DNA from: an uncultured Candidatus Saccharibacteria bacterium
GTDB taxonomy: Bacteria > Patescibacteriota > Minisyncoccia > Phycocordibacterales > UBA9973
Length of the DNA: 64,000 nt
Assembly: GCA_964634365.1 (NCBI GenBank)
Contig: CAZWJU010000002.1
Coordinates: 32,069-96,068, forward strand
Reading direction: 5' to 3'
The stretch's first letter is position 1. Each line of letters starts with the position of its first letter. A program made the translations under genes and the position numbers. Below, piece after piece: positions 7,680-52,649 of this stretch. Under the pieces are notes generated by a model, which saw nothing but the letters and a program-made list of their open reading frames with translations, was not told where the DNA came from and did not search any database.

Positions 7680-8279
7680 TTACAGAGCGCCGGTGCCGGT
7701 ACCATCTCCTTCAGCACCTCCTTCTGGTGGAGGAACCTCGCCTCCACCCGCATCACCTCCTCCGTCTACTGCAACAGCCACTGGGTTTGGATATTTTACT
7801 TCGAGCAATCTTTCGACAATGCGATTTGTATCGAAAGAATCAAGCTGTGCACAATCTATATTGTAACCCTGAGATATTATACGTGTGTAGCTAGTACCGT
7901 CTATATCAAAATTTTTATTTACCTCAACAGTCGCACAACTACGAGGAGACAGATCAAATTCAAATGTAAACAAGGTTGGAGAAATATCTTCAAAATTAGC
8001 GACCATACCATCTCTACACTCTGGGACTATTGGAGAAACTGGATTGAAAGCATTTTGTTTTAAATCATAATACAAAGCACATTCACTACCAGCGTCTGCT
8101 GCATAAAAAGCTAAGTTAGATTCTTTTGCTGAAACAGTAAGCTCGGTTTCTTTTAAGGCTATATTGAATATACCTGTTGCAAGCACTAGTACGATAACAG
8201 ATATCAAAACTGTAAAAAGCACAACAAAACCATCTTGCTTGCTACCTGTCTTTTTTATTTGTTCGATAAATATTTTCAT
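7680..8279 (-). CDS. Pilus minor component, PilX-like (N-terminal hydrophobic helix, Gly/Pro/Glu-rich C-terminus)
   Basis: N-terminal QDGFVVLFTVLISVIVLVLATG resembles a pilin-like helix without canonical Glu5; last gene of the pseudopilin block. Confidence 0.45.
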   Translation of the reverse strand: MKIFIEQIKKTGSKQDGFVVLFTVLISVIVLVLATGIFNIALKETELTVSAKESNLAFYAADAGSECALYYDLKQNAFNPVSPIVPECRDGMVANFEDISPTLFTFEFDLSPRSCATVEVNKNFDIDGTSYTRIISQGYNIDCAQLDSFDTNRIVERLLEVKYPNPVAVAVDGGGDAGGGEVPPPEGGAEGDGTGTGAL

Positions 8280-8282
8280 ATT

Positions 8283-8894
8283 TTATATTGCACTTACATG
8301 TGGCTGCCAATCCATCAAAATATTTTGATAAGTAATAGTCTGCTCTGACAAACCTTCGTACCAAGTTACTTTACTAGTAACCAAAACATCGTCTGCTAAA
8401 GTTTCATTAATCGGCAAAACAAATATTGTTCTAGTAAAAGGTGAGGCTACTGATCCACTAGGAAGATCACATGCATCACTCTGGTCGTATCCAAAATATC
8501 CAGAAGTCTCTGAGTACGGAATATTGCAAGTAGACCCAGTACATGCGCATACATCTAAAGTAGACGGGTCTATGTTGCAACCAGCTGTCCCACTACAAGT
8601 ATTAATATTTGATAAGAAAATATCCCATCCGGCACCAGAAGGGTCGGATATAACTGAAGTATCTCTAATATTACGAACTGTCTCTACACCCTCTTGGGCT
8701 AGATACGAAGCTGTAAGTCTAGACTTTGCTAGAGTTGTGTTTGATACACCACCACTTGCGACAACTATCAGAAAAACAATCGATGAAGAAAATATAGCCA
8801 AGGCCACAAGAGTTTCTACTATTGTAAAACCAGAATTTTTACTTGCTATTTTATTTATTTTAAAAAGTTTGTTTTGCATATATTTAAAAATCAA
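8283..8894 (-). CDS. Type IV pseudopilin (prepilin-type N-terminal cleavage/methylation domain)
   Basis: SGFTIVETLVALAIF class III signal (G/FTxxE). Confidence 0.7.
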   Translation of the reverse strand: MIFKYMQNKLFKINKIASKNSGFTIVETLVALAIFSSSIVFLIVVASGGVSNTTLAKSRLTASYLAQEGVETVRNIRDTSVISDPSGAGWDIFLSNINTCSGTAGCNIDPSTLDVCACTGSTCNIPYSETSGYFGYDQSDACDLPSGSVASPFTRTIFVLPINETLADDVLVTSKVTWYEGLSEQTITYQNILMDWQPHVSAI

Positions 8895-9543
8895 TTTGTC
8901 TTTGGGATATAGTAGTCTGAACAGAAAAAGGAGTAGATATATCTTGATAAACTATATCTCCTGCCAATCTAATAGTAACTTTCGGCTGCACACCATCGCC
9001 TAGCATAGGATTTGGATTTTCAGCATTCTCAATATTGAACCCAGATTTATTTGGATCTAAATGCACAGAGTATGGGGTCAAATCTAAACACCCACTACCT
9101 GTAGGCGATGTAGCACAAGTAATACCAGCACCTTTTACAAGCTTGTAAATTCCAGTACCTGAGATTTCTACAATTCTGTACACAACCTGGTCTCCATCGT
9201 CAGAAATATTACCGTTAACTTTTTCGAAAGCCATAGACTGATATGGTGTTATACCCTCTTCAAAAGGACAATCCTCTGCCTCACCCAATCCACCAATAGA
9301 TGCTCTACAGTTATATAAACTTCCTAGGCGAATATTTCTAGACATGTCTTCTAAAACAAAGTGCATACTATCTATCGCCTGTCTAGAATCTGATGTCTTT
9401 TTATGAATTTGATTTACTCTCAAAACCGCTCCGATACCTATTATCATCACAACAGTAAAAAGCCCGACCGCTATAACAATCTCTATAACTGTAAAACCAG
9501 ATTTTTTGTTTTTATGATTTTTGTATTTCATATTGTTTAACAA
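8884..9543 (-). CDS. Type IV pseudopilin
   Basis: KKSGFTVIEIVIAVGLF prepilin motif. Confidence 0.7.
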   Translation of the reverse strand: MLNNMKYKNHKNKKSGFTVIEIVIAVGLFTVVMIIGIGAVLRVNQIHKKTSDSRQAIDSMHFVLEDMSRNIRLGSLYNCRASIGGLGEAEDCPFEEGITPYQSMAFEKVNGNISDDGDQVVYRIVEISGTGIYKLVKGAGITCATSPTGSGCLDLTPYSVHLDPNKSGFNIENAENPNPMLGDGVQPKVTIRLAGDIVYQDISTPFSVQTTISQRQIDF

Positions 9544-10184
9544 GCAAAACCACCTCCATCACAAGCATCAACTGGTCCGTCAGATACACTGATCTGGCCA
9601 GTAGGCCATATGGAAATATTCATATTGGCACCTTTTGGAGAAACTATTTCTATTTTTGCACCCGATGATAATTCATATAAAGTATCAAATTTTGTGCCGT
9701 ATATTTTAGGTTCTGGAAAAGGTCTGACATAGGTAACAGACAAATCTTCGTACCCACAAGAACCATCATGAGTACAGATATCAGATATCGCATCACCTGA
9801 TTGAATTGTTGTTGTAGACAGACATTCAATACCAAGCTCCCCTGGTGTGTCGCAATCACCATCAAAAAGAAAATTTCTAGGAGAACCTAAGTCTCTAAAA
9901 TAAATAAACGACTCTGGTGTATCCATATCAAAATAAATTCCGTATGAAGGTGGCTGACCACTATCTAAACCTCCAGTAAGTCTTCCAGATATAGCGTTTG
10001 TCTGAGCTTTTTTAATATGCAAAGCTATGTCTTGAGATAGATTTTGAAGTGAAGCTTTTGTAGAAAAATCTGAAAAGTTAAAAAGTGTGACACTAGATAT
10101 AATACCAACTATAGACAAAACCACTATGAGCTCTATAAAAGTCATCCCCTTTTTGTATTTATAATTTTCTTTAAAAATTTTCAT
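9537..10184 (-). CDS. Type IV pseudopilin (Cys-rich C-terminus)
   Basis: KGMTFIELIVVLSIVGI prepilin motif. Confidence 0.7.
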   Translation of the reverse strand: MKIFKENYKYKKGMTFIELIVVLSIVGIISSVTLFNFSDFSTKASLQNLSQDIALHIKKAQTNAISGRLTGGLDSGQPPSYGIYFDMDTPESFIYFRDLGSPRNFLFDGDCDTPGELGIECLSTTTIQSGDAISDICTHDGSCGYEDLSVTYVRPFPEPKIYGTKFDTLYELSSGAKIEIVSPKGANMNISIWPTGQISVSDGPVDACDGGGFAC

Positions 10185-10991
10185 TTAGAAAAATAAACTA
10201 CTTAAAAATCTAGAGAGTGATTCGAAAGATGTTCCGAAAATATATACAAACAATGTTCCAAATACTAAAAACGGACCAAAAGGAATCTCACTTTTCATAG
10301 TATATCTAGAATGCCTAGCTATTAGAAGTATTATAGAAACGATTGCACCCACCCAAAAAGAAATCATGAGAGCCGCAATCCCGTGAGATAGACCGAGGAA
10401 AAATCCCATACCCATCATGAGCTTTAGATCGCCAAAACCCATCAGTCTACCTTTTGATAAAAGCCAGAGTATATAAAAAGGTAGTGGTATGAGTATCCCT
10501 GCAAAAGCATCTATAGGATCTGGGGTAATAATCCCATAAGCATTTGAAAACATTCCCAAGAAACTAACCAAAATAAAAGTGTAGACTAAGGCGTTTGGAA
10601 TAATCTTGTGACGAATGTCGTATACAGCTATCACTATAAGCAATGAAGCCATAAACATAGAATATATAAGTGGAGCAACAGTAACGAAAGAAACTGTTTC
10701 AGAAGATAAGAACTTATTGGCTAGAAATACAAAGATAAAAGCTGTAGATATTTCAACAAGTGGGTATTGGATAGAGATTTTTGATTTACAAACTGAACAC
10801 TTACCACGTAAAAATATGTAACTGAAAATCGGAAAAAGTTCATACCAATGAAGAGTCTTGCCACAAGACAGACACATGGATCTACCACCTAGTCCCCAAC
10901 CAGTCTGGTAACGGTATATAACAACATTCAAGAAACTTCCGATAAAGAGTCCTAGGATAAATATTATAAATATTGGTAAAAAAGTATTCAT
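10185..10991 (-). CDS. pilD: Prepilin peptidase (A24 family)
   Basis: N-terminal CxxC...CxxC zinc tetracysteine, multi-TM, conserved Asp-containing GFGDLKL block. Confidence 0.85.
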   Translation of the reverse strand: MNTFLPIFIIFILGLFIGSFLNVVIYRYQTGWGLGGRSMCLSCGKTLHWYELFPIFSYIFLRGKCSVCKSKISIQYPLVEISTAFIFVFLANKFLSSETVSFVTVAPLIYSMFMASLLIVIAVYDIRHKIIPNALVYTFILVSFLGMFSNAYGIITPDPIDAFAGILIPLPFYILWLLSKGRLMGFGDLKLMMGMGFFLGLSHGIAALMISFWVGAIVSIILLIARHSRYTMKSEIPFGPFLVFGTLFVYIFGTSFESLSRFLSSLFF

Positions 10992-10998
10992 TTATATT

Positions 10999-11511
10999 TT
11001 ATGGTACTAGGTCGTAACATTTTCCACCAGCAGGCTCTATAGCAGTACCCTTGCAAGACTGTGTATCATCGCCACGAATAGAGTCGGAATTTAAGCCGTT
11101 TAGGTTATCACATAGGTTTAGACCAGTCCCTATTAAACCTGTATTTGTAGATGTAAGGTCACGATCAGTTTGCAATACGTTATTATTTTTTTCTAAAGAA
11201 GTACCAATATGATATGAAGAACATTGACCACCAGACCCACCCAAGCCTATGTAATATACTCCAGTTGGAAGTGAGGGTATGTATGTTGGAGAGAGAGTTG
11301 CTGCTGTCTGAGGATAGTAACCATTTGCGCTGAAATATAAATTCAACGCATTGACCACAGATTTTAATTCTGTAATTTTTTTTGTATCGCGACCACCGGC
11401 ACGTGCTGATGAAACCGAAGCGAATATTACAGAAGCTATAATTCCGATTATAGCAATAACGATAAGGAGTTCCAAAAGAGTAAAACCTTTAAAGTTTTTA
11501 TATTTTTTCAT
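10999..11511 (-). CDS. Type IV pilin
   Basis: KGFTLLELLIVIAIIGIIA class III signal; 170 aa. Confidence 0.75.
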   Translation of the reverse strand: MKKYKNFKGFTLLELLIVIAIIGIIASVIFASVSSARAGGRDTKKITELKSVVNALNLYFSANGYYPQTAATLSPTYIPSLPTGVYYIGLGGSGGQCSSYHIGTSLEKNNNVLQTDRDLTSTNTGLIGTGLNLCDNLNGLNSDSIRGDDTQSCKGTAIEPAGGKCYDLVP

Positions 11512-11579
11512 GAAAAATTACCTTAATAACAATAAATTAAGTATACCATGTAGTATTCTATGGTGTAACGAATGCTGAT

Positions 11580-11619
11580 GTGCAAAACAAAAACCGCGAA
11601 AGCGGTTTTTGTTTTGCAC
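11580..11619 (-). terminator. Strong intrinsic terminator (18-bp perfect stem GTGCAAAACAAAAACCGC gaaa GCGGTTTTTGTTTTGCAC)
   Basis: Directly downstream of the major pilin gene stop; perfect palindrome. Confidence 0.7.
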
Positions 11620-11632
11620 ATTCATTACCAGA

Positions 11633-12088
11633 TTAAGAACAAGTAGTTCCAGATGCTGCCAAGAAGTTACTAGTAACTATAGCCGCACCAGTGTTATCTA
11701 CACAGAAAGACACACCTGTGTTAAGAGGAACCTGAGCTGCCCAACCTGTTGATGAGTCGTGGCATACTGGAACAGTCGCAGTTGCTACAGTTGCATCAGC
11801 TGCTGTAAATGTTGAAGTAGAACCATTCTTAGCTTTCCATGCTGCAAGTACACTGTCTCCAATAACGTTTGTTCCTGTCGCTGCACAAACCAGATCGTAT
11901 GTTCCTGCTGTATCATAGAATAATTCTGCCTCTGCACGAGCATTAGACAAGTTTGCCTTAACAGCAGCATCTGCACCCTTTGTACGTGCTGTGTTAAGTG
12001 AAGCCAAAACTACTGAAGCTAGGATACCGATGATTGCGATAACAACCAAGAGTTCTATAAGTGTGAAACCTTTGTTTTTTTGTGACAT
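11633..12088 (-). CDS. Type IV pilin, probable major pilin (PilA-like)
   Basis: KGFTLIELLVVIAIIGILASV signal; 151 aa; followed by a very strong terminator, consistent with high expression. Confidence 0.75.
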   Translation of the reverse strand: MSQKNKGFTLIELLVVIAIIGILASVVLASLNTARTKGADAAVKANLSNARAEAELFYDTAGTYDLVCAATGTNVIGDSVLAAWKAKNGSTSTFTAADATVATATVPVCHDSSTGWAAQVPLNTGVSFCVDNTGAAIVTSNFLAASGTTCS

Positions 12089-12283: not shown

Positions 12284-15193
12284 ATGAAAAAGATTACTCT
12301 AACATTTTTACTGATACTTTTGATAGTATCTGCATGCCTATCACAAACAGTGGTAGATGGATTTCAATATATTCTAGGCGACAAAGGTATCGACAGTATT
12401 ACAAATACAGAATACCAAGTTGCAGAACAAATTAATCCAGCAACATACACCGTCGTTGGCTATGCTGATATTGAGATTAATGAAATGTATCCATATTTCA
12501 TAAGCTCAACACCAAACAGAGGGTCGGTGACTATATCAGACAGACATAACGACAGTGATGATGGCGACTGGTCCCCTGGTGGAATACATCCGGGGGAAGA
12601 TTGGAACTATGGAAGTGTGGGTGAAGATATTGGAATGCCTATATACGCTACAGCAAATGGAGTTATACACGATTTTCGAATGCTGTCATATCCAATCAAT
12701 AAGTCTGGGTGGTGCATGGTAATAAAACACTTCATGCCCGATGGTTCATATGTGTATAGTTTTTATATGCATATAACAAATATCGCAAATACCGACGGCG
12801 CAATATGTCTAAATGAAAGTGATTTTGGTTTTTCTATAGGCGAAGAAGTAACAAGAGGTCAAATGATTGCACGAATAGGAAATGTAACTAGTTTTGGTAG
12901 TCATTGCCATTTTGAAATCAGAAGCTTGTATGACCAAGAGTTGGACCTGTGGCCAAATGGACCAGGTGGGCGTTATCCTGAATATTCCAATTCATACAAA
13001 TATGCAATTGATATAGAAAATGTAGCTCTTGCTTACTATGAAATGCAATTAGATGGAATTTTAGATGCATCAGATTTTATTGACACACATAGACCGAGTG
13101 AATTTATTGAAACTGAACCAGTCTGTATAGACCCAGAGATTGAATGGCAAAATACTATTGGAGGAATAAGCAATGATGAACTGTATGTGGTAAAAAAAGT
13201 TTCTAATGGCTACATATTGGGAGGTAATTCTAATTCTGATATATCTATAGACAAAATAGAAATATCAAATGGCGGGATTGATTACTGGATAATAAAGACA
13301 GATGATACGGGTATGATTCAATGGCAGAATACTATTGGAGGAAGTGGCGATGATAGATTATGTTATATTAGCCAGACTACAGATAATGGTTATATATTAG
13401 GAGGATGCTCAAATTCTGGTATTTCAGGAGATAAAAATGAATCATCTTATGGTGCACAAGATTTATGGATAGTAAAAATAGACTCTATCGGGAATATACA
13501 GTGGCAGAATACTATTGGAGGAAGTGGCGATGATATATTGTCGTCTATAAAACAAACCGTAGACGGAGGTTATATACTAGGAAGTTATTCAAATTCTAAT
13601 ATATCAGGAGATAAAGCTGAAGCTAGTTTGGGCGGGATTGATTACTGGATACTTAAATTAGATTTTTCAGGTAATGTACAGTGGCAGAATACTATTGGAG
13701 GAAGTGATGGAGATTACTTGTACGATATTATTCAAACATCCGATAATCAGTATTTACTTGGTGGCTATTCAAATTCTAGTATTTCGGTAGATAAAACTGA
13801 AGCAACCAATGGCAATAATGATTATTGGATAATCAAGATAGATGATTTTGGTGATATACAATGGCAAAATACTATTGGAGGAAGTGGCGATGATATATTA
13901 TTTTCAATACAAGAAATACCAAGTAGCGGTTATTTAATAGGTGGTAAATCTGGATCTAATATTTCAGGAGATAAAAGTGAAAATAGTCTAGGATACCTTG
14001 ATTACTGGATACTTAAATTAGATTTTTCAGGTAATGTACAGTGGCAGAATACTATTGGAGGAAATTTAGACGACAATTTAACAAGTATTTCAAAAACTGG
14101 CGATAATGGAGTGCTCATTTCTGGCTACTCAAATTCTGGTATTTCAGGAGATAAAAATGAAGCTCTAATTGGAATATATGATGGGTGGATAGTAAAAATA
14201 GACTCTATCGGGAATATACAGTGGCAGAATACTATTGGAGGAACCGGATATGATTTTTTATATTGCACTCAAGAAATATCCAGTGGTGAATATATTCTGG
14301 GATTCACTTCAGGATCTACTATTTCCGGAGATAAAGATGAAGATAATCTGGGAAACTATGATTATTGGGTAATTAAATTATTTGGTACCTGTAACCCATC
14401 CACTGAAATTTGCAATACTTTCGATGACGATTGTGATGGACTTATCGACGAAGACCTGGAACCATCTATATCAATCGAAGCATTGGGGTCTACAACCTTC
14501 TGCCAAGGAAGTAGTGTCGTGCTTACAGCAACCCATACCGGAACATCAGTACAGTGGTATAAAAATGGATCAATAATTTCTGGCGCAACTTACGATTTTA
14601 TAACCGTATCTGCGACCGGAAACTATACATGCATAAGCTCCAATGAATGTGCAAGTACAACTTCAAACTCTGTAATTGTAAACGTAAATAAAAATCCATC
14701 TGCAAATATAACAGCGGGCGGTCCAACTAGTTTCTGTTTTGGAGGAAGTGTCACACTTACAGCAAACACTGGGGCTTCACTATCCTACCAATGGTACAAA
14801 GGTGCAACAGCCATCGCTGGAGCAACTAGTATAAATTACGTAGCTACAACTTCTGGAAACTACAAATGTAGAGTAACCAAAACTGCCACAGGGTGTTACA
14901 AGAATTCAAATACTATAACAGTATCTGTAACCTGCCGAGAAGGTGTATCGATAGATCAAATACTTAGCCCAAATCCAGCGAGCAATATCTTGTATGTGGA
15001 TTTGATGGATTTTGAAAGTGACGCTTTGGATATATACATGATCAACAATATAGGTCAAAAAGTCCTTGCCAAAAAAACCGAAGGAGGACACCTGATTGAT
15101 CTTGATATATCTTCCCTGCCAAAAGGGCTGTACTCATTTTTCATAATGAAAGAAGGTTTTATTATTTACTCAGAAAAATTTATCGTCGAGTAG
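12284..15193 (+). CDS. Secreted multidomain protein: signal peptide, M23 (LytM-type) metallopeptidase domain, seven tandem ~60-aa SBBP beta-propeller repeats, CxxxDDDCDG motif, three Ig-like repeats and a T9SS-type C-terminal sorting domain
   Basis: M23 motifs HPGED and GSHCHFE (HxxxD and HxH). Seven repeats of ..IQWQNTIGGSGDD...YILGG.SNS.ISGDK.E...G..DYWI.K.D. FC.GGSVTLTA...YQWYKNG...GNYTC repeats. C-terminus SPNPASNILYVDL...IYMINNIGQKV...IDLDISSLPKGLYSF matches the Por-secretion CTD pattern. Confidence 0.65.
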   Translation: MKKITLTFLLILLIVSACLSQTVVDGFQYILGDKGIDSITNTEYQVAEQINPATYTVVGYADIEINEMYPYFISSTPNRGSVTISDRHNDSDDGDWSPGGIHPGEDWNYGSVGEDIGMPIYATANGVIHDFRMLSYPINKSGWCMVIKHFMPDGSYVYSFYMHITNIANTDGAICLNESDFGFSIGEEVTRGQMIARIGNVTSFGSHCHFEIRSLYDQELDLWPNGPGGRYPEYSNSYKYAIDIENVALAYYEMQLDGILDASDFIDTHRPSEFIETEPVCIDPEIEWQNTIGGISNDELYVVKKVSNGYILGGNSNSDISIDKIEISNGGIDYWIIKTDDTGMIQWQNTIGGSGDDRLCYISQTTDNGYILGGCSNSGISGDKNESSYGAQDLWIVKIDSIGNIQWQNTIGGSGDDILSSIKQTVDGGYILGSYSNSNISGDKAEASLGGIDYWILKLDFSGNVQWQNTIGGSDGDYLYDIIQTSDNQYLLGGYSNSSISVDKTEATNGNNDYWIIKIDDFGDIQWQNTIGGSGDDILFSIQEIPSSGYLIGGKSGSNISGDKSENSLGYLDYWILKLDFSGNVQWQNTIGGNLDDNLTSISKTGDNGVLISGYSNSGISGDKNEALIGIYDGWIVKIDSIGNIQWQNTIGGTGYDFLYCTQEISSGEYILGFTSGSTISGDKDEDNLGNYDYWVIKLFGTCNPSTEICNTFDDDCDGLIDEDLEPSISIEALGSTTFCQGSSVVLTATHTGTSVQWYKNGSIISGATYDFITVSATGNYTCISSNECASTTSNSVIVNVNKNPSANITAGGPTSFCFGGSVTLTANTGASLSYQWYKGATAIAGATSINYVATTSGNYKCRVTKTATGCYKNSNTITVSVTCREGVSIDQILSPNPASNILYVDLMDFESDALDIYMINNIGQKVLAKKTEGGHLIDLDISSLPKGLYSFFIMKEGFIIYSEKFIVE
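13138..14400 (+). repeat. Seven tandem 180-bp intragenic repeats (propeller blades) with stretches of 57-66 nt of perfect nucleotide identity between non-adjacent units
   Basis: 13638-13704 is identical to 13998-14064, and 13467-13524 is identical to 14187-14244; read directly. Confidence 0.8.
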
Positions 15194-15202
15194 ATATAAA
15201 CT

Positions 15203-15230
15203 AAAAACTCTGCAAATTTGCAGAGTTTTT
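15203..15230 (+). terminator. Intrinsic terminator (AAAACTCTGCAAA TTTGCAGAGTTTT)
   Basis: Perfect palindrome plus T-run after the 969-aa gene. Confidence 0.65.
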
Positions 15231-15274: not shown

Positions 15275-15853
15275 ATGAAAAACCAAAAGAACTTACTTGT
15301 GTCAATCTTAGTTATTTTACTTGTTTTTGTTTGTATATATTTACTCATAAAAGATACACACAAAGACAGCACTGTCGTTTCAAATGATTCTGAAATACAG
15401 ACAGATTACTACGCAGGTCCTTTTAGTTGCACTGCTGGAGGATACAATCAAACAGGAGAAGGTATACTCGATACTTATACTGTAAAATCAGGAGATTCTC
15501 TTCTCTCTATATCTAAAAACATATACGGAGATTCTTCTCGTATTTCAGACTTAGTTTTTCTGAACAAGCATACTTACAACTCACTTTCTACAGACTCTCC
15601 ATTTATTGAAATCGGATGGACTCTCTTACTGCCAGAAAAAGATATCAGAATCGACAGCAGAGGAATGACCGTAAGTAGTGGTCAGGTAATAAAATTAGAT
15701 ACCGATCAAATCATAATAAAAACAAGCGATTATTCAGCTTCATACCACTTCTACTCAGATCATACCTCCCTTTCACTACCAGATATAAAACCAGGTGATT
15801 GTATACATGTCTACAATTCTGGCTCTCATATATATAAAATAGAAATGCAATAA
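15275..15853 (+). CDS. Membrane-anchored LysM domain protein
   Basis: N-terminal TM helix; LysM-like block YTVKSGDSLLSISKNIYGDSSRISDLVFLN. Confidence 0.55.
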   Translation: MKNQKNLLVSILVILLVFVCIYLLIKDTHKDSTVVSNDSEIQTDYYAGPFSCTAGGYNQTGEGILDTYTVKSGDSLLSISKNIYGDSSRISDLVFLNKHTYNSLSTDSPFIEIGWTLLLPEKDIRIDSRGMTVSSGQVIKLDTDQIIIKTSDYSASYHFYSDHTSLSLPDIKPGDCIHVYNSGSHIYKIEMQ

Positions 15854-15903: not shown

Positions 15904-17106
15904 TTACTGTATCCCCCCTGCGATGTTGTAGATAGGCACAAGTACTGATGCGAGAAGCACACCGACGCCGAGACCCAGTGCCACGATCATGATAGGTTCG
16001 ATAAGTGAGACGAGTGTATCCACTGCATCATCAACTTCACGCTTGTAGAACTTTGCAAGAGTTTTCAGAATTGATCCTAAAGATCCAGTCTCCTCACCCA
16101 CCTTCACCATCTGCACCAAAATCGGTGGGATTGGTTCATGTTTTGCAAATGCATCAGATAGTGATGACCCACCTTTTACATCTTCTTCGGCCTTTTTTAA
16201 AATATCAGAGTAAACACGATTTCCTACAACATCCCCTGTGATTTCTATAGAACGCACGATTGATATACCAGAGGAAAGCATTGTATCTAAGTTGTCAGCA
16301 ATACGAGCAAGGTAAAGTTTCTTGAAAAGTTTACCTATGATTGGAAAAGAGATTTTTAGCCCATCTAAATATTGCTTGCCAGAATCAGTTCTAGAAAGAT
16401 GCCAAACATATACTCCTGCTATGACAAAAAATATCAATATAAACAATCCATAGTTTACAAAGAAATCACTTGCTCCGATCACCGCTTTTGTATAAAGAGG
16501 TATATCCTGACCACTCTCAGTAATAATAGAAGAAAGCTTCGGTATAACTATAGTAAACATGAGCCCCATCACAACAAAGAAAGTAAATATAACAAAAGCT
16601 GGATATATAAGAGCGTTGCGAGTTTTTGATGTAAGAGAGTAGTTTCGATCTAGATAGTCAGCTAGAAAATTAAATGTATCATTTAGTTTTCCAGATTCTT
16701 CTCCTGCTTTTACCATGTTTACATAGAAAGTTGAAAACACATCTGGGTGCTTCGCCAGAGCTCCTGAAATCGAGTACCCTGCCTGCAGGTCGTCCACTAT
16801 TTGGTTTAGATTTCTTGAAAGCAATGGGTTCTCTACGTTTGAAGCAAGAAGTGAAAAAGCTTTCAGTGCAGATACTTGGGCTTCGAAAAGAGTCGCAATT
16901 TGTCGTGAAAGTATAACCACGTCTTTTGCTGGAACATGTTCGAACACTGACATCTGCAAAAGACTTTTATCTTCCTCGCCTTTTATAGACACAACTATAA
17001 AACCACGACGCTGAAGTGCCGCGATAGCCAAGTCTTTTGTTTGAGCATCGATTGAACCTTCTTTTTGCTCGCCTGTATTTGAAACAACTTTGTATTTGAA
17101 AGTCAT
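15904..17106 (-). CDS. pilC: Type IV pilus inner-membrane platform protein (GspF family)
   Basis: 400 aa, two GspF-type repeats, 3 TM segments. Confidence 0.85.
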   Translation of the reverse strand: MTFKYKVVSNTGEQKEGSIDAQTKDLAIAALQRRGFIVVSIKGEEDKSLLQMSVFEHVPAKDVVILSRQIATLFEAQVSALKAFSLLASNVENPLLSRNLNQIVDDLQAGYSISGALAKHPDVFSTFYVNMVKAGEESGKLNDTFNFLADYLDRNYSLTSKTRNALIYPAFVIFTFFVVMGLMFTIVIPKLSSIITESGQDIPLYTKAVIGASDFFVNYGLFILIFFVIAGVYVWHLSRTDSGKQYLDGLKISFPIIGKLFKKLYLARIADNLDTMLSSGISIVRSIEITGDVVGNRVYSDILKKAEEDVKGGSSLSDAFAKHEPIPPILVQMVKVGEETGSLGSILKTLAKFYKREVDDAVDTLVSLIEPIMIVALGLGVGVLLASVLVPIYNIAGGIQ

Positions 17107-17116
17107 GGTTTAAAAA

Positions 17117-18175
17117 TTAAAGTAATCGCTCTAAAGCTTTTGGGTTAAGTGAATATAGGTAAGCGTTGTCCATAGTGATCTGTCCTGCACGCACAAGCTC
17201 AACAAGAGAGCGGTTCATATCTATCATGCCATGTTCATATCCAGTTTCTATTACTACATCTATCTCGTGAGTTCGCTTTTCACGAATTAGATTTTGTACT
17301 GCATTGTTGTTCACAAGAAGCTCATAAGCTGGGACGAGTCCACCAGTTATACAAGGTATAAGTCTCTGAGAAAATATTCCAATCAAACTCGAAGCAAGTT
17401 GTATACGAATCTGATCTTGCTGACCAGGTGGAAATGCGTCGATTATACGATCAATAGTCTGAGAAGCATTGTTTGTGTGTAGAGTAGAAAAAACCAAGTG
17501 ACCAGTCTCAGCAGCTGTAACAGCAGTAGATATAGTTTCGGCGTTGCGCATCTCACCTATCAGTATTACATTTACATCTTCACGGAATACAGATTTTAAA
17601 GCTGAGTTGAAATCTTTTGTATCTATACCAACTTCACGTTGATCTATAATAGAGTGTTTTGGTGTATACATATATTCTATCGGGTCTTCGATAGTAACTA
17701 TGTGTTCTGCGCGTTCGTTGTTTATGAGATTCACCATAGAAGCGAGTGTTGTAGACTTACCCTGACCAACCGGTCCTACTACTAGGAAGAATCCTTGTTT
17801 CTTTCTGCAAAAAGTTTCGATGATTGGTGGAAGTCTAAGTTCAGCAAGAGTTTTAACTTGTGGTATAAGTCTTAGAGCAATCCCTGCTATACCTTTTGAA
17901 AAGAAAGCGTTACCGCGAAGTCTCGCCTCCCCTTTGAAGTCGTATGAAAAATCAATCTCCTGATCTTCTAAAAATTTCTTGTATTTAACGTCATCCAATA
18001 ACTCTTTTAGGATTCCTAGTGAGTCTTCTTTTGTGTATACACTATGTTTAACTAAAAAGTTCAATTGTCCTGAAACACGTATCGCAGGATAACGCATCCC
18101 AGCAATATGAAGATCGGACCCGCCTTCGCGGATTAGGGTAGTCAATAAATCTTCGAGTTCTTTTGCGTAATCCAT
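17117..18175 (-). CDS. pilT: Type IV pilus retraction ATPase
   Basis: 352 aa; Walker A GPVGQGKST; PilT-length hexameric ATPase. Confidence 0.85.
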   Translation of the reverse strand: MDYAKELEDLLTTLIREGGSDLHIAGMRYPAIRVSGQLNFLVKHSVYTKEDSLGILKELLDDVKYKKFLEDQEIDFSYDFKGEARLRGNAFFSKGIAGIALRLIPQVKTLAELRLPPIIETFCRKKQGFFLVVGPVGQGKSTTLASMVNLINNERAEHIVTIEDPIEYMYTPKHSIIDQREVGIDTKDFNSALKSVFREDVNVILIGEMRNAETISTAVTAAETGHLVFSTLHTNNASQTIDRIIDAFPPGQQDQIRIQLASSLIGIFSQRLIPCITGGLVPAYELLVNNNAVQNLIREKRTHEIDVVIETGYEHGMIDMNRSLVELVRAGQITMDNAYLYSLNPKALERLL

Positions 18176-18177
18176 AA

Positions 18178-18579
18178 TTATCTTGGTAGTTGTTTTGTAA
18201 CAATTTCAGTTACCTTAGTAATAACTTCACTTGGTGTACTAGAAGCCTTAACAATATAACCAGCTACTCCCAAGGTGGCACCGCGTTCTATATCAGATTG
18301 CTGACCACGATTTGAAAGTATTATTTTCATTACACCCTCGGCAATTTTTTCATCTCGCAACTTTTCAAGCAGCTCAAATCCGTCCATCCCAGGCATAACA
18401 ACGTCCATCAACATAACATCCGGAGAAGCACCTGCTTTTAGTTTTTCATAAGCAGCCATAGAGCCGAGTGCAGTGTCTACAGAAAACTTAGGCTCCTGAG
18501 AAAATTTCATCGCATACATATCGAGTAGAAAATTGTCGTCGTCGATAATTAAGATTTTGTATTTTTTACTGTCGTCCAT
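18178..18579 (-). CDS. Stand-alone response-regulator receiver domain protein (PilH/CheY-like)
   Basis: REC fold with DDD...D...T...K positions (ILIIDDD...LMDVVMPGMDG...); sits between pilB and pilT. Confidence 0.7.
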   Translation of the reverse strand: MDDSKKYKILIIDDDNFLLDMYAMKFSQEPKFSVDTALGSMAAYEKLKAGASPDVMLMDVVMPGMDGFELLEKLRDEKIAEGVMKIILSNRGQQSDIERGATLGVAGYIVKASSTPSEVITKVTEIVTKQLPR

Positions 18580-18622
18580 AATTGCTTCTAATTATACTAT
18601 AAAGCCACTTACTTTTACCAAT

Positions 18623-20359
18623 TTATAAATCATTGTAAATCTCCTGGAAAGGCAGCTCCCCTCTCAGACTCTTTATAATCGCATCTTCTTTCATGGTAAG
18701 CATGCCGTTTGCTCTAGCAACTTTGTATATCTCTGCTTCTACTGGATTAGTCAGGATTACGTGTTGCATTTCTTTGTTTACTTCAAACATTTCAAATACC
18801 GCCATGCGACCACGAGTTCCGTTTGGACATTCGGCAGAAGGCACAACTTCATACATTTTGTCTTGTTTAGGTAGCTGTGCTCTGTATTTTTCAGGAAGAT
18901 CTTTGAACTGCTTGTCTAGAAGTTCTTTCATTGCTTCATCCATAGGAACTTCTTTGCGTGAGTCTTCACACACAACACGCGCAAGACGTTGAGCTATAGA
19001 GAGTATGAGTGTTGGCGCAATCAAGTATGGATCAACTCCCATATCTACTAGACGAGGGACTACACCAACAGCAGAGTTTGTGTGTAGAGTAGACAAAACC
19101 AAGTGTCCAGTAAGAGCCGCCTGTATCGCGAGCTGAGCTGTTTCTTTGTCGCGTATTTCCCCCACCATTATTATGTTCGGATCTTGACGCAATATTGAAC
19201 GTAAACCTGAAGCAAAAGAGTATCCGATCTCTGGCATAACCTGAGACTGGTTCACATCTGGAATCTGATATTCAACTGGATCTTCTAGAGATACTACGTT
19301 TGATTTTTCTTTATCGAGTTCGTTTAACATCGAGTATACAGTTGTAGACTTACCGGAACCTGTTGGACCCGTCATAAGTATAAGACCGTATGGTTTTGCC
19401 AATGCATCTTTTATGAGCTTGTAGTTGTGTTCGGACAAGCCTAGTTCTGAAAGTTTCTTCACACCACGAGAAGAATCGAGGATTCTCATTACCACTTTTT
19501 CACCATAGTAGGCTGGAAATGTAGATACACGAAATTCTACTTTTCTACCAGCAATCTTTGTAGCAAAGCTTCCGTCTTGTGGCTTGCGTTTTTCGTCTAG
19601 ACGTAGTTTTGCCATTATCTTTATGCGAGCAACTATACCTGCATATACGTTCAAAGGCAGAACTAGACTTGTGTGCAGTACGCCGTCTACACGAAAGCGA
19701 ACCTTGACCTTATATCCAGTATTTTCAATGTGTATATCAGAAGCGTTCCCTTCTGTTGCGTGGCGCAATATAACCGCTACGACTTTTATAATCGGAGCAT
19801 CTTCAACTATGCGCTCTTCTTCACCTGGTTTTAATTTTGCTTGAATATTTCTATCTTCTATTACAATATCGCCAGTATTTACAGACTCCATCTCTTTATC
19901 GATTTCAGATATTGCTTCGTCGACTTCTCCGGTTAGGCCTTCGTAATTTTTCAAAATACCTTCAAATGCCTTATTTGATATCAAAAATATCTTATAAGGA
20001 ATATTCATTTTTGAAGTTATAAATTGTATAGCATCTATCGCACCTATATTATCAGGATTTACTATACCCACCTCAAGCACTCCGTCTCTTATACCAAGAG
20101 GTACAAACATATAATGCTTTGCTGAATCTTCTGGAATATATTTCAAAGTTTCAGAAGTGATTTGTTTTATATCAACATCTTTTGTAGGAATTTTGAAAAA
20201 GCCACCTTTCATTTCCAAAAGCTTTTTTTCATCTAAACCTAGCTCCACAAGCATGTCGTCGATGTTGCCGCCGTGTTTTTCATCGGCTAGTCTAACTACC
20301 TCACTTATTTGATTGTCTGTAATAATACCCTGACCTGCAAGGTGTTCTAAAAAAGTCAT
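18623..20359 (-). CDS. pilB: Type IV pilus assembly ATPase (GspE family)
   Basis: 578 aa; Walker A GPTGSGKSTT; GspE N-domain. Confidence 0.9.
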   Translation of the reverse strand: MTFLEHLAGQGIITDNQISEVVRLADEKHGGNIDDMLVELGLDEKKLLEMKGGFFKIPTKDVDIKQITSETLKYIPEDSAKHYMFVPLGIRDGVLEVGIVNPDNIGAIDAIQFITSKMNIPYKIFLISNKAFEGILKNYEGLTGEVDEAISEIDKEMESVNTGDIVIEDRNIQAKLKPGEEERIVEDAPIIKVVAVILRHATEGNASDIHIENTGYKVKVRFRVDGVLHTSLVLPLNVYAGIVARIKIMAKLRLDEKRKPQDGSFATKIAGRKVEFRVSTFPAYYGEKVVMRILDSSRGVKKLSELGLSEHNYKLIKDALAKPYGLILMTGPTGSGKSTTVYSMLNELDKEKSNVVSLEDPVEYQIPDVNQSQVMPEIGYSFASGLRSILRQDPNIIMVGEIRDKETAQLAIQAALTGHLVLSTLHTNSAVGVVPRLVDMGVDPYLIAPTLILSIAQRLARVVCEDSRKEVPMDEAMKELLDKQFKDLPEKYRAQLPKQDKMYEVVPSAECPNGTRGRMAVFEMFEVNKEMQHVILTNPVEAEIYKVARANGMLTMKEDAIIKSLRGELPFQEIYNDL

Positions 20360-20379
20360 ATAAAAATTTGAACAAACAA

Positions 20380-21000
20380 CTAATTACTTGTACCTAGAGT
20401 CTTCCAAGATACAACTGAACCGTAGACAGTCTGTCCATTGATTTTAGCGGCAGCTTTATAGAAATATGTTGTATTCGCAGTAAGACCAGAAATTGTAGCA
20501 GTATAAGGACTTGTACTGCCTAGCAATTTTGTTGTACTAGCACCAAGAGATTCTGTTAGACCCCATTCAAACCATCTCTCAGTAGCTACAGTTCCAGCAA
20601 GCAAAGCTCCTTGGAGAACTGTGCTAGAAGTAGATATAGACGTAGGTGTGTTTGTTATGACACTAGGACTTGAGACAACACTTGTAGGAGACAGGTCTGA
20701 GCCTATAGGAGCAAAAGGATTCGGACGACCTTGATTGCCAAGCTGAACAAGAGTTATAGAAAAATCTTGTAGACCTGTGAACGTATTTGCATTGAAAATA
20801 TCTCCATCGAGTTTTAGCACTTGAAGGTTCAATAGAGTAGCTAGAAACTCGTCACCCACTTCGTTTGTAGAGTCTGTATTTGCGCCGACAGTAGATAGAG
20901 TTTGATCACCTTGTTTTTTATTTGATACTAGAGAATAACCGATTGCGATTAGTGCAACCACCACTGCTACTGTTATTAGACGTTTAATAATCTTACTCAT
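20380..21000 (-). CDS. Membrane-anchored pilus-operon protein with FN3/Ig-like C-terminal domain (occupies the PilP position)
   Basis: Single N-terminal TM helix, GRPNPFAP motif, beta-rich C-terminus ending ...YFYKAAAKINGQTVYGSVVSWKT. Confidence 0.35.
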   Translation of the reverse strand: MSKIIKRLITVAVVVALIAIGYSLVSNKKQGDQTLSTVGANTDSTNEVGDEFLATLLNLQVLKLDGDIFNANTFTGLQDFSITLVQLGNQGRPNPFAPIGSDLSPTSVVSSPSVITNTPTSISTSSTVLQGALLAGTVATERWFEWGLTESLGASTTKLLGSTSPYTATISGLTANTTYFYKAAAKINGQTVYGSVVSWKTLGTSN

Positions 21001-21004
21001 ATAT

Positions 21005-21586
21005 CTAATTCTTTAACCAATATGTTTTAATCTTAATATTGTACTTGTAAAAATCTTTACCTTCTGAAGCAGTCGAATCAAAAGTGATACCCTGGATATC
21101 AACAATACGCAGACTACTTTCCAAGTCAGCCAAAAATTTTTGAAAATTATCATAAGAAGCTTGTGTAGAGAAACTCAAATCAAAAGTTCCAATATCTCTA
21201 TTTGTCATATTTAGACTAGCCCCACCTTCGGCTATAGCGTTTTCTGCACCCGCTGCTTCTTTGTTGTCGACATCAAAAGCTACGTTCGTAACTGACATAC
21301 CGTATCTAGAAGCTATATAATCAATCTCTAAAATCAATCGGATATTGTCTACGTTGTCTGGCAAAAGCTTGCGTAATCGCTCAACATCACTTGGAGCAAA
21401 TTCGTTGTACTTGGCTACTAACTCATCTCTTCTCTCTTCAAGTTGTTTTGAGTTTGCCAAAGCTTCAGTGTAAGTTGCTACTTCAGCTTTAAGTTCTTTT
21501 GTAGTTTTAAATATAGGATTTGTAAAACCCAAAAACAATCCTATGGAAGCTACAAACAAAATAATTGGAAAAATAAATCTCATCAT
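21005..21586 (-). CDS. pilO: Type IV pilus assembly protein PilO-like
   Basis: N-terminal TM plus coiled-coil, 193 aa, position after pilN. Confidence 0.55.
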   Translation of the reverse strand: MMRFIFPIILFVASIGLFLGFTNPIFKTTKELKAEVATYTEALANSKQLEERRDELVAKYNEFAPSDVERLRKLLPDNVDNIRLILEIDYIASRYGMSVTNVAFDVDNKEAAGAENAIAEGGASLNMTNRDIGTFDLSFSTQASYDNFQKFLADLESSLRIVDIQGITFDSTASEGKDFYKYNIKIKTYWLKN

Positions 21587-21590
21587 AAAA

Positions 21591-22283
21591 TTATGGGTTT
21601 AATTGGGTGCTATTAGTAGTACCTGCAGGCAATGTTGTATCTACTGTTTCTAGGTCGACCGTTGCACTTTCTGATGAATCGGACACAGCAGATCTGTTTA
21701 CGAATTCTGTATATGAAAGATATGTAGGATCAACTGTAAATTCTAAATCGAAATTTACCTTACCGCTCGCGTCAACCAACAAATTTGAAAAGATAGGATC
21801 TTTTATGTATTTATTTTGCAAAAACATATCGGATTGTAGAGCTATAGGTGTATACCCGCTTGAAGATTGGCCTCGAAGTTTTATATTTACCACTCCTCCG
21901 TTTTCTTTGTCGATTTCATAATCCATACTTGTATAGCGAATAGTCTTCAGAGTAAGTGTCTCAAGTGTTTCAAATATTGGACTTATAACTGTGTGACTAG
22001 ATATAACACTCTCGGCTGCAGACAATCTACGATCTAGATTTTCAAGATCAGTGATAAGTGAAGGCTCAAAACGAGCCTTAGCTTTATCTAGCTGACTAGA
22101 CATACTGTCTACTTGCTTTATGAGTGAAGCTCTATAAAAATACACACCTGCTGCAGAAGCTAGAGATGCAAAAAAAACTAGTGTTGCAAAAAACACAAGT
22201 AAACTCGCAGGTCTACGTGTGGTAACACGCTCTTCTGCAAGAGATTTCTTAGGTATAAAAGATGTTTGAAAGTCTTTATCCAT
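21591..22283 (-). CDS. pilN: Type IV pilus assembly protein PilN-like
   Basis: Short cytoplasmic N-terminus, single TM, coiled-coil; follows pilM. Confidence 0.55.
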   Translation of the reverse strand: MDKDFQTSFIPKKSLAEERVTTRRPASLLVFFATLVFFASLASAAGVYFYRASLIKQVDSMSSQLDKAKARFEPSLITDLENLDRRLSAAESVISSHTVISPIFETLETLTLKTIRYTSMDYEIDKENGGVVNIKLRGQSSSGYTPIALQSDMFLQNKYIKDPIFSNLLVDASGKVNFDLEFTVDPTYLSYTEFVNRSAVSDSSESATVDLETVDTTLPAGTTNSTQLNP

Positions 22284-22365
22284 TTACATAAACGAAGCAC
22301 AAGCTTCTAACATTCTTATATTGTAATACGAACTAGCTAGTATGTATAGAAAATAATGTGTAAAA

Positions 22366-23511
22366 CTATGCAGATTCTTGTAAGCGACGCAGAGCAAGTC
22401 CTGCTGCAACAGCAAACTCAGGTCCAGCAGTCTCAAGTACATTGTCTAAAAATGCAGGTGCTTCTACTTTATCAAAAGGCTTAGCCATCACAACCTCTGA
22501 TCTCAATTGTTCTGTTGCTCTCTCTTTGAAACCTTTCAACAAAACTCCCCCGCCAGTTAGTATCACCTTGCTTATAGTTTTACCGTATTGTCTTTCGTAA
22601 TTTAAAATAGCGCTATTTGTTTCACTCAATATATAGTCTACAGACAGAGAAATAATTTCTGGCATACTCTGATCTTTTTGATTGCCAAACATTCCAAACT
22701 CTCTTTTCATTTGCTCTGCTTGCAAAAAAGTTACACCCAAAGATTTAGACAGTGCATTTGTTATGTCTTGACTTCCTCTGTCTATACTGTGGAACTTTCT
22801 TACAATCCCGTACTCTATGATAGATAATTTGGTTTTTAGTGCACCCATATCGATTATGAGAACAGTTGAAAGCTCTCTACCAAAACTACTTCGTATACTA
22901 GAAAAAAGTTCGATTTCAAAAAAATCTACTGATAGATTTGTCTTTGCGATTATATCTCTATATTTTTGTATAGTGTCATTGTGAATAGCAGCGACCAAGA
23001 CTTCTGTTTTTGGAGACTCTTTTATAGGCTTACCGTCTGGTCCAACAGCTCCATCTAACGCAGAATCTTTTTTAGGAATCGGCCACCAATCAAGTGAAAC
23101 TTCAGATATTGGAACTGGAATATATTTTCTAGCTTCAGTCGGTATAATAGAAGCTAACTGACTTTCATCTATAACTGCAGGTAGTTCAATCAAAAAAACT
23201 AAACTAGAAGAAGCAGGTATAGAAACTGCACCCTGTTTTGTAGTTATACCAGCCTCGCGCATAACATCTGTAAGTGCCTGGGCAACTTTCTCTATAGGTA
23301 GGTTTGTTGTCTGTCCCACTACGCCACCTTCTAAGTATGGACCGAGCGAAAGAGCGCCGTATGTCTCCAGTACTGCCTTTGCGCCTTTTTTCTTTAGCTG
23401 GACAACCTTGATAGCCGATGATCCAATATCAATACCAACAACACTGTCAGTAGAGCTCTTTTTGAAGACTGCTAGGCTATCGCTTAATATCTTTGAAAAT
23501 GGGTTTGCCAT
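22366..23511 (-). CDS. pilM: Type IV pilus assembly ATPase-fold protein PilM (actin-like)
   Basis: 382 aa from ATG 23511 (MANPFSKIL...GIDIGSSAIKVVQL). The ORF-track extension to 23847 overlaps comFC and is not coding. Confidence 0.8.
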   Translation of the reverse strand: MANPFSKILSDSLAVFKKSSTDSVVGIDIGSSAIKVVQLKKKGAKAVLETYGALSLGPYLEGGVVGQTTNLPIEKVAQALTDVMREAGITTKQGAVSIPASSSLVFLIELPAVIDESQLASIIPTEARKYIPVPISEVSLDWWPIPKKDSALDGAVGPDGKPIKESPKTEVLVAAIHNDTIQKYRDIIAKTNLSVDFFEIELFSSIRSSFGRELSTVLIIDMGALKTKLSIIEYGIVRKFHSIDRGSQDITNALSKSLGVTFLQAEQMKREFGMFGNQKDQSMPEIISLSVDYILSETNSAILNYERQYGKTISKVILTGGGVLLKGFKERATEQLRSEVVMAKPFDKVEAPAFLDNVLETAGPEFAVAAGLALRRLQESA

Positions 23512-23557
23512 ATATAAAATTAGTGTCTGTATTATATCATATATACATATTTTAGTT

Positions 23558-24208
23558 ATGAATATACTATCATCGATACTTGAATACGTATTCCCCACCA
23601 AATGCATAGGGTGTAAAAACATAGGCGACATATTGTGCGAGCAGTGCCTACAAAAAATCCCCGAGCCTAAACATCCTGTAGATAGTTTTATACACGCATG
23701 TTTTTCATATAAAAACGGAACAGTGAAGTACGCACTCTGGCTTCTAAAATACCACGGCAAGTTTCCTATTGCGAAGATATTTGGCAATACACTGTATGAA
23801 TACAATATAGACATATTAAGTGAAAAAAATATGTTCGACTCTGGCAAGGAAACTTTAGTTGTACCTATACCAATTACAAAAAATCGTAAACGTGTGCGCG
23901 GATATAATCAATCAGCTCTACTCGCAAGAGCTTTTGTAGAAAATCTTGGAGAAAAAGAATTCAAATATGGAGGAGATATCATAGAAAAAATTCGTGACAC
24001 AATCGCTCAGGCAAAAATTCGCAACCGTACAGAAAGATTGAAAAACTTGCAGGGTGCTTACAAGATTAAATCTAATGCAATTGTAAAAGGAAAAAATATA
24101 ATTTTAATCGACGATGTTTCAACTACCGGAGCAACATTAAAAGAAGCTCGCAGAGTTCTGCGTGAAGCTGGTGCAAGGAACGTAATCGCACTGGTCGTAG
24201 CGCATTAG
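23558..24208 (+). CDS. comFC: ComF-family phosphoribosyltransferase (competence protein ComFC)
   Basis: 216 aa from ATG 23558; N-terminal CxxC...CxxC zinc finger and PRTase motif ILIDDVSTTGAT. Divergent from pilM with a 46-bp intergenic region. Confidence 0.75.
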   Translation: MNILSSILEYVFPTKCIGCKNIGDILCEQCLQKIPEPKHPVDSFIHACFSYKNGTVKYALWLLKYHGKFPIAKIFGNTLYEYNIDILSEKNMFDSGKETLVVPIPITKNRKRVRGYNQSALLARAFVENLGEKEFKYGGDIIEKIRDTIAQAKIRNRTERLKNLQGAYKIKSNAIVKGKNIILIDDVSTTGATLKEARRVLREAGARNVIALVVAH

Positions 24209-24342: not shown

Positions 24343-24362
24343 CCGTTTCCGTTTCAATATAT

Positions 24363-31331: not shown

Positions 31332-31339
31332 CATGACAG

Positions 31340-52570: not shown

Positions 52571-52604
52571 AAGCAATATTGTATACCGTTTATGATATAA
52601 AACA

Positions 52605-52632
52605 AAATAGAAAAAATCCCCAGAGGGGATTT
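52605..52632 (-). terminator. Intrinsic terminator (AAAAATCCCC aga GGGGATTTTT) directly after rplE
   Basis: Read directly. Confidence 0.65.
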
Positions 52633-52649
52633 TTTCTTTCAAAATGTTT

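Follow-up and report, generated by a model that had tools for sequence, protein, structure and literature searches.

Overall structure of the gene and its product

The gene analyzed here lies at nucleotides 12284..15193 (+ strand) of a 64-kb stretch of contig CAZWJU010000002.1, the whole of which is called the window hereafter. It encodes a protein of 969 amino acids. On the basis of the open reading frame (ORF) list and of Pfam and NCBIfam matches, the protein is composed of a signal peptide, an M23 module, seven propeller-type repeats, a Cys-rich linker, two immunoglobulin (Ig)-like domains, and a C-terminal domain (CTD) of the kind that sorts cargo to the type IX secretion system (T9SS). 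The identical protein is found as an NCBI entry (P0001). A previous inspection of the DNA letters and ORFs (the sequence-only reading) had noticed the T9SS-type tail in a genome that otherwise looks like a member of the candidate phyla radiation (CPR), and had proposed either that the domain was acquired horizontally and is used differently or that the organism encodes an unexpected route of secretion. This interpretation is supported in part, but it overlooked an intact lytic M23 module, the fixed place of the gene in a pilus cluster, and extreme allelic mosaicism.

The signal peptide (aa 1–21, 12284..12346, +) was delimited by alignment A1 and the N-termini of the relatives. It ends with Ser20-Gln21, which is invariant in all nine orthologues in the alignment. 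The pair resembles the cleavage site defined by the Q-rule for Bacteroidota signal peptides (PMC5837995, PMC10653852), and cleavage presumably occurs there. A lipobox-like VSAC motif in the signal peptide is found in the window copy alone among the orthologues. The M23 peptidoglycan endopeptidase module follows (aa 22–285, 12347..13138, +), as defined by Pfam (core, aa 115–214) and invariant columns.

The seven SBBP-type repeats of approximately 60 residues (aa 286–700, 13139..14383, +) were located by the NCBIfam SBBP propeller model and by a regular expression, with which the WQNTIGG motif is found at positions 288, 347, 407, 467, 527, 587, and 647. The repeats match the propeller domain of CylK in the PDB (E=1.6e-19), and their number suggests that they form a 7-bladed β-propeller. 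A MopE-like Cys-rich linker (aa 701–724, 14384..14455, +), recognized by a weak Pfam match and alignment A1, is missing from two orthologues (P0026 and P0121). Two Ig-like domains (Ig_2 and Ig_7 'CHU_C associated'; aa 725–885, 14456..14938, +) were assigned by Pfam and per-segment BLAST, the latter giving 60–75% identity with the Bacteroidota relatives. The remaining part (14939..15190, +) consists of a short linker and the T9SS type A CTD, the Pfam match to which covers aa 896–968 (nucleotides 14969–15187). A perfect 12-bp hairpin with A/T runs on either side (15203..15230) was picked up by a consensus scan; it starts 10 nucleotides past the stop codon and is terminator-like on both strands. 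A promoter scan gave fewer sites than shuffled controls did and is uninformative.

Identity, fold, and conservation of the CTD

The strings from which the CTD had originally been recognized, SPNPASNILYVDL, IYMINNIGQKV, and IDLDISSLPKGLYSF, are all present in the translation of the ORF at 12284..15193 (+), and the interval given for them (14880–15193) corresponds to aa 866–969 and the stop codon. Searches with hidden Markov models (HMMs) bear out the assignment, as both PF18962 and TIGR04183 score above their curated cut-offs. PF18962 (Por_Secre_tail) matches aa 896–968 with 31.7 bits against a gathering threshold of 27 (E=1.8e-7), and TIGR04183 gives 26.6 bits against a cut-off of 23 (E=4.2e-6) on the isolated tail, while it is unlisted in the scan of the whole protein. 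PF18962 is also matched by all nine aligned orthologues (best E=1.5e-11).

The AlphaFold2 model of the last 90 residues, built from 44 aligned tails, is an all-β sandwich with a predicted local distance difference test score (pLDDT) of 87.8. The top matches in the PDB found by Foldseek are the CTD of mirolase (8qb1), with template modeling (TM) scores of 0.72/0.74 and a root mean square deviation of 1.9 Å, and the CTD of NucA bound in the SprA-PorV translocon (8glk_D; TM scores, 0.69/0.81). Further matches are the CTD of RemA (8gl6_D) and DUF3244 proteins. Pro896, Asn897, Pro898, Gly924, and Tyr950 of the GxY motif are invariant in the CTD, and the protein ends with SEKFIVE, including the Lys residue. 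The domain occupies the extreme C-terminus, one residue before the stop codon, in a protein with an N-terminal signal peptide. The tail thus shares the HMMs, fold, and motifs of Bacteroidota T9SS type A cargo such as mirolase, NucA (8glk), and RemA (8gl6), and is confirmed to be a genuine T9SS type A CTD beyond a chance pattern match.

In orthologues paired closely enough for the estimate, the CTD has a dN/dS value of 0.18. The tail shows no decay, and selection favors a folded domain. The position of the near-C-terminal Lys should be noted. The conserved motifs of CTDs specify the fold rather than contacts with the translocon, and this Lys is the sole residue tied to transport (PMC10994853; the residue is also noted in PMC11285876). 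A Lys residue is found within the last seven positions in 62 of the 68 Bacteroidota relatives versus 9 of the 12 CPR sequences. It is gone in the P0026 and P0005/P0018 lineages and is kept in the window.

The M23 module

His102 and Asp106 (HxxxD), His163, and His207 and His209 (HxH) are all invariant across the orthologues in alignment A1, and the score with PF01551 is 33.8 bits against a cut-off of 28.7. The active site is shown to be intact, and the module is predicted to be an active metallopeptidase. Among solved structures, the phage lytic endopeptidase LysTt72 (8s3m) is closest in sequence (E=2.9e-12) as well as in fold, followed by lysostaphin-type hydrolases. The AlphaFold2 model of the module has a pLDDT of 58.7, with 80–90 in the core. 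Since the model is poor outside the catalytic core, the core match alone was used, and the core matches M23 structures. A literature search for the PDB codes 8S3M, 8S3U, and 8S3W retrieved no paper.

The catalytic fold and the full HxxxD/H/HxH set are common to LysTt72, lysostaphin, and EnpA, though the identity between LysTt72 and the module is only approximately 27%. Unlike these lytic M23 endopeptidases, the subfamily of the window protein has a peculiar N-terminal region of approximately 80 residues and a C-terminal helix motif, DGIIDPSDFIDxHRP, and the module shares one polypeptide with a large propeller-Ig-CTD cassette.

Location in a type IV pilus cluster

The sequence-only reading had listed type IV pilus (T4P) genes among the CPR hallmarks of the surroundings, and the gene indeed sits within such a cluster. 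On one side (7680..12088, −), three pilin genes, for major and minor pilins (N_methyl), and the gene for the prepilin peptidase PilD are found. The order in this flank is identical in the orthologue loci L001–L012, L015, and L016. On the other side (15904..23847, −), the ORF list, Pfam, and synteny indicate PilC, PilT, a response regulator, PilB, three small PilN/O-like ORFs, and PilM. Between the gene and this downstream flank lies a gene for a 192-residue membrane-anchored protein with a peptidoglycan-binding LysM domain (15275..15853, +; Pfam LysM). This gene is peculiar to the window, and the other lineages have a pilin or nothing at that place. As a separate observation, PilM (22366–23847, −) has an N-terminal extension of approximately 135 residues before PilM_2, while the PilM proteins of relatives are 364–381 residues long.

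Full-length relatives with 46–55% identity fill the same slot in independent assemblies. They are found in GCA_020631955.1 ('Ca. Nomurabacteria'; L001/L011), a 643,671-bp contig of GCA_041402165.1 ('Ca. Paceibacterota'; L002), two ENA assemblies (L003 and L004), JGI 3300056623/4 (L005 and L006), GCA_031972635.1 (L007), a Logan assembly (L008), DALYDA010000008.1 (L010), DALYDX010000018.1 (L012), and the loci L015 and L016. The contents of the slot vary: the window has the LysM gene, L001–L004 have an extra pilin, and L009 has a GIY-YIG gene, the orientation being inverted. In the last case (L009, 9643–14383), a variant of 1,460 residues is inverted so that its strand is that of the pilus genes, with a 76-residue GIY-YIG ORF ahead of it. 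This arrangement again points to insertion or rearrangement at the slot.

The metagenome-assembled genomes (MAGs) bearing the orthologues are named Ca. Paceibacterota or Nomurabacteria, and the flanking genes of the window are 78–94% identical to those of L007. The absence of ribosomal protein L30, another hallmark claimed before, is also observed: the genes for S5 (48820..49461) and L15 (48365..48808) are separated by 11 nucleotides, with no L30 gene in between. Judging from the absence of L30 and the nearest relatives, the assignment of the genome to Patescibacteria/CPR holds. The GC content of the gene (0.362), its GC content at third codon positions (0.259), and its codon usage are inside the range of the window. 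A chimeric contig is ruled out by synteny and composition.

The gene is rare. Only three of 185,579 species representatives carry it in a genome search that used one peptide pattern, so that this count is a lower bound.

Sequence variation and mosaicism

The protein is far more variable than its neighbors. Between the window and L007, the nearest relative, the identities of PilC, PilT, PilB, and PilD are 93%, 94%, 90%, and 86%, respectively, versus 49% for the protein in question. The degree of identity also differs from domain to domain. P0019 and P0057 share 38% identity in the M23 module, 82% in the propeller, and 100% in the CTD; the corresponding values for P0044 and P0057 are 91%, 49%, and 39%.

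The same is seen in nucleotides. P0019 and P0123 show 100% identity over a stretch that begins 1.5 kb upstream and extends to approximately nucleotide 1950 of the gene, beyond which the identity falls to 67–75% over the Ig region and then returns to 83–93%. In the pair of P0019 and P0057, much of both flanks is 95–100% identical, while the M23 modules are only 34–59% identical. The recombination breakpoints are sharp in nucleotides and lie near domain borders. The discordant identities of the domains, together with the near-identical flanks, indicate allelic replacement at the scale of domains in genomes that otherwise hardly differ. The tree of the Ig region, which is unresolved and has no support values, was used only to notice the mosaicism. 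Recombination of cassettes and divergence above that of the neighbors fit interaction with a variable external partner, such as the surface of a host.

Origin of the gene

Horizontal acquisition, as proposed in the sequence-only reading, is strongly supported, but the transferred unit is the whole gene rather than the CTD alone. The C-terminal 70% of the protein is approximately 51% identical to proteins of approximately 1,230 residues from Chitinophagales/Bacteroidetes, which are named 'MopE-related' or 'T9SS type A sorting domain-containing protein'. Relatives that lack the M23 module occur in the Bacteroidota loci L013 and L014, where TonB-dependent receptors and tandem arrays of CTD genes are found. 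In these relatives, the end of the signal peptide ('...FSQ/AQ') is directly followed by 'PEIEWQNTIGG'. In the CPR proteins, the end of the signal peptide ('...FSQT') is followed by the M23 module and then by 'APEIEWQNTIGG'.

This comparison might suggest an insertion of the M23 module that took place in CPR and separated a Bacteroidota signal peptide from the propeller. That possibility is ruled out by P0139 (990 residues), which has the same, complete architecture and aligns with the window protein from end to end with 45% identity. P0139 is encoded on a Bacteroidota contig beside an M23-less paralogue, P0085, directly after a conjugative transposon (CTn)-type integrase (L026, 10001–15228), and RteC and an excisionase-like gene are found near P0139. 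The position of P0139 and P0085 beside the integrase indicates that the family travels on conjugative-transposon-like elements, and the full architecture of P0139 indicates that the fusion arose outside CPR.

A profile search with the M23 module over 1.84 billion representatives gave 96 sequences at E<=1e-30 in many architectures, while the tight CPR-type group comprises only about five clusters at 50% identity. Of the 150 best M23-module representatives, 18 end with the CTD, and many of these 18 have a Q-rule signal peptide directly before the M23 module. Two representatives with both M23 and CTD are named as Microscillaceae and Bacteroidota. In a neighbor-joining tree of the M23 module (36 sequences, 276 columns, 300 bootstraps), the propeller-type clade is supported by 98%, and each of the two CPR subgroups by 100%. 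P0139 groups with CPR subgroup A (71%), and monophyly of the CPR sequences alone receives 0–8%. The grouping of P0139 and the low values for a CPR-only group indicate that the gene passed as a whole between Bacteroidota and CPR, probably repeatedly or in both directions.

The T9SS tag, the Q-rule signal peptide, and the expansion of paralogues point to Bacteroidota as the source. In sequence terms, the gene is a member of a Bacteroidota T9SS-cargo family characterized by a Q-rule signal peptide, a particular M23 module, a variable middle part, and the CTD. The window protein shares with such cargo the propeller-Ig-CTD body (approximately 51% identity) and the Q-rule-style signal peptide, and P0139 has the complete architecture.

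Relation to the T9SS

As noted before from the ORFs, no T9SS component is seen in the window: none was found among 20 ORFs scanned with Pfam, which include all ORFs of at least 364 residues. No ORF in the window exceeds 969 residues, and therefore no SprA-sized gene is present there. An HMM of the CTD built from alignment A2 gives a single match over the 64 kb of the window and likewise a single match for each CPR locus. In two Bacteroidota loci of approximately 22 kb used as a positive control, the same HMM gives four matches (L013) and at least eight (L014). The many CTD-bearing cargo proteins that accompany a T9SS are thus not seen in the window or the CPR loci, each of which covers part of its genome.

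Where T9SS export is understood, binding of the CTD takes place on the periplasmic side and not at the exterior of the cell. In Bacteroidota, this system moves proteins across the outer membrane (PMC10994853), while CPR bacteria have been proposed to have no outer membrane (bioRxiv 10.1101/2025.01.22.634366). The window protein differs from Bacteroidota T9SS cargo in that its host cell is reported to lack an outer membrane, that no T9SS genes are seen around it in the window, and that its gene is a lone CTD gene in a T4P cluster instead of one of dozens. The reports on the outer membrane and the single CTD per locus make a different use of the domain the most likely reading, and a T9SS is presumably absent from the genome.

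Other features of the window

Several other features of the window should be mentioned. A tRNA-Ile gene with anticodon TAT (UAU) is present at 31258–31332 (+). Such a tRNA is uncommon in bacteria, most of which read AUA with a lysidine-modified CAU tRNA. Two adjacent tRNA-Ser genes (24256–24344 and 24363–24450, +) have the anticodons GCT and ACT. The A at position 34 in the latter is unusual for a Ser tRNA, and the gene may be a duplicated and mutated copy. At 25–1323 (+) and 1284–1680 (−), a serine recombinase ORF, the 3′ end of which overlaps a tRNA-Asp gene, adjoins two tRNA-Met genes, and this region may be the edge of an integrated element. A biopterin-dependent aromatic amino acid hydroxylase (30314–31204, −; Pfam E=2e-31) is encoded, which is unexpected in a reduced CPR genome.

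In the ribosomal spc operon, a 364-residue ORF with no Pfam match (51545..52642, −) and a 125-residue ORF (51165..51542, −) lie between the genes for L5 (52650..53189) and S8 (50374..50760). A VirD4/TrwB-like coupling ATPase of 908 residues (TrwB_AAD_bind, TraG-D_C) is encoded at 42276–45005 (−). This is consistent with the monoderm-type type IV secretion system (T4SS) reported for Patescibacteria (bioRxiv 10.1101/2025.01.22.634366).

Discussion

On balance, we favor the view that the protein is a pilus-associated lytic adhesin that derives from Bacteroidota and is exported by Sec, with the CTD serving as a folded end-module rather than as a T9SS signal. Within this view, it is likely that the CTD is a real one that was transferred with the whole gene and now stands outside canonical T9SS use. 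A host-directed lytic role of the M23 protein is put forward only tentatively.

The process can be pictured as follows. A narrow Paceibacteria/Nomurabacteria lineage would have captured the gene, which would have settled in the variable pilus slot between the pilins/PilD and PilC. The protein would be exported by the Sec system via its signal peptide. In a cell with no outer membrane, as described in the literature, a T9SS step would be neither needed nor possible, and the CTD would not act as a translocation signal because the cell is reported to lack that membrane. The domain would instead be kept as the folded terminal β-sandwich of a propeller-Ig-CTD cassette that may bind surfaces. The M23 module would cut peptidoglycan outside the cell, most likely that of a cell contacted by the pilus, for access, nutrients, or DNA, and the shuffling of cassettes would reflect interaction with a variable partner.

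It is known that T4P drive host association in cultivated CPR bacteria (PMC9894109, PMC11623550). In Ca. Southlakia epibionticum, peptidase and lysozyme genes beside virB4 are essential for epibiotic growth (cited in bioRxiv 10.1101/2025.01.22.634366). In this CPR epibiont, too, cell-wall hydrolase genes lie beside a surface machine. The machine there, however, is a T4SS and not T4P, the organism belongs to another CPR class, and no Bacteroidota-type CTD is involved. Furthermore, the present gene is known from sequence alone.

The intact active site and the location of the gene within the pilus cluster in every CPR locus would also suit a housekeeping enzyme that opens the cell's own peptidoglycan for T4P assembly in the manner of VirB1, FlgJ, and EtgA, the Bacteroidota part being a spacer. 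The next gene in the window encodes the LysM protein, and specialized hydrolases beside secretion machines are well known (bioRxiv 10.1101/2025.01.22.634366). VirB1, FlgJ, and EtgA are likewise encoded inside the gene clusters of their machines. These enzymes are, however, small and conserved with their machines, whereas the gene in the window is lineage-restricted and hypervariable and carries an adhesin-like cassette, which accounts for about 680 residues. Pilus clusters are widespread in CPR, but the distribution of the gene is very narrow (3 of 185,579 species representatives with the one peptide pattern used, and about five clusters at 50% identity in a set of 1.84 billion), and conservation with the machine across its range, as for a machine-dedicated hydrolase, is not seen. 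The 49% identity of the protein against 90–94% for PilB, PilC, and PilT, and an exolytic phage lysin as the nearest structure, also speak against a role in the cell's own wall, which we consider unlikely. The chance of an assembly or binning artefact, in which a Bacteroidota gene was misjoined to a CPR contig, is practically negligible. Although the best-scoring named matches are from Bacteroidota, at least nine assemblies made independently (NCBI, ENA, JGI, and Logan) have the gene at this place in the cluster, and it therefore is no chimera; moreover, its composition is typical of the window, and both flanks are continuous with pilus genes.

Another question is whether the CTD is a still-working T9SS signal, either for a T9SS encoded in the genome or for docking the lysin onto the PorV/SprA translocon or the cargo layer of a Bacteroidota host. 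The CTD in the window keeps PNP, G, GxY, and the transport-linked Lys, is under purifying selection, and is retained in all the orthologues. The whole cassette resembles that of the host phylum, and CTDs are recognized by overall shape and hydrophobic contacts (PMC10994853). Nevertheless, no T9SS component is found among the ORFs scanned, each CPR locus has one CTD protein in contrast with the arrays in Bacteroidota, CPR bacteria are proposed to have no outer membrane, and the known T9SS binds the CTD from the periplasmic side. CTDs can be incompatible even among Bacteroidota species (PMC11285876). A working signal is thus very improbable. A related, improbable idea is that these Paceibacteria are epibionts of Bacteroidota, for example, Chitinophagales in activated sludge, and use the stolen T9SS cargo as a targeting device. 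The propeller-Ig-CTD part would then recognize the host via its T9SS/PorV shuttle or a paralogous cargo layer and bring the lysin to the pilus contact. If this were true, the swapping of cassettes would track host variation, the CTD would be an inter-species docking module, and the gene would predict the host range of an uncultured CPR lineage.

Several points weigh against the lytic adhesin with a CTD end-module that we favor. The target of the M23 module, the wall of a host or the cell's own wall, is one that we only infer. The CTD in the window has all the hallmarks of a working signal, including the near-C-terminal Lys. Loss of this residue in two of approximately seven CPR lineages, versus 6 of the 68 Bacteroidota relatives, is not a significant difference, and relaxation of the T9SS-specific constraint is therefore not demonstrated. 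The trees were built by neighbor joining from short alignments, and the 71% support for the grouping of P0139 is modest. The scan for T9SS components covered 20 ORFs in 64 kb of a 231,850-bp contig. Finally, a close relative in L027 (537–3483) is frameshifted into ORFs of 777 and 211 residues, the latter with Ig_7 and the CTD; this copy lies outside a pilus cluster and adjoins a type III restriction-modification system.

The domain match itself is not new to databases, since the NCBI pipeline labels the orthologues 'T9SS type A sorting domain-containing protein [Candidatus Nomurabacteria bacterium]'. Our literature search found no relevant paper linking T9SS, Por_Secre_tail, PF18962, or TIGR04183 to CPR or Parcubacteria, and the main text of a paper on CPR bacteria in activated sludge (PMC10031880) mentions neither the gene nor the MAG PATE-33. 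What is new is the context, namely, a Bacteroidota T9SS-cargo lysin that is fixed in the type IV pilus cluster of CPR bacteria, where it forms a hypervariable mosaic locus.

T9SS sorting domains are regarded as a signature of Bacteroidota and of their outer-membrane secretion system. Here, the CTD is stably inherited and selected in a lineage reported to have no outer membrane, and therefore the domain can probably persist without the machine. An automatic annotation such as 'T9SS type A sorting domain-containing protein' in a CPR genome should accordingly not be counted as evidence of a T9SS. The gene, which unites an intact lysin, a surface cassette derived from Bacteroidota, a place in the pilus cluster, and shuffling of cassettes among strains, is a testable candidate for the means by which an uncultured lineage of Paceibacteria attacks its partner or attaches to it. 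It also indicates Bacteroidota as gene donors, and possibly as hosts.

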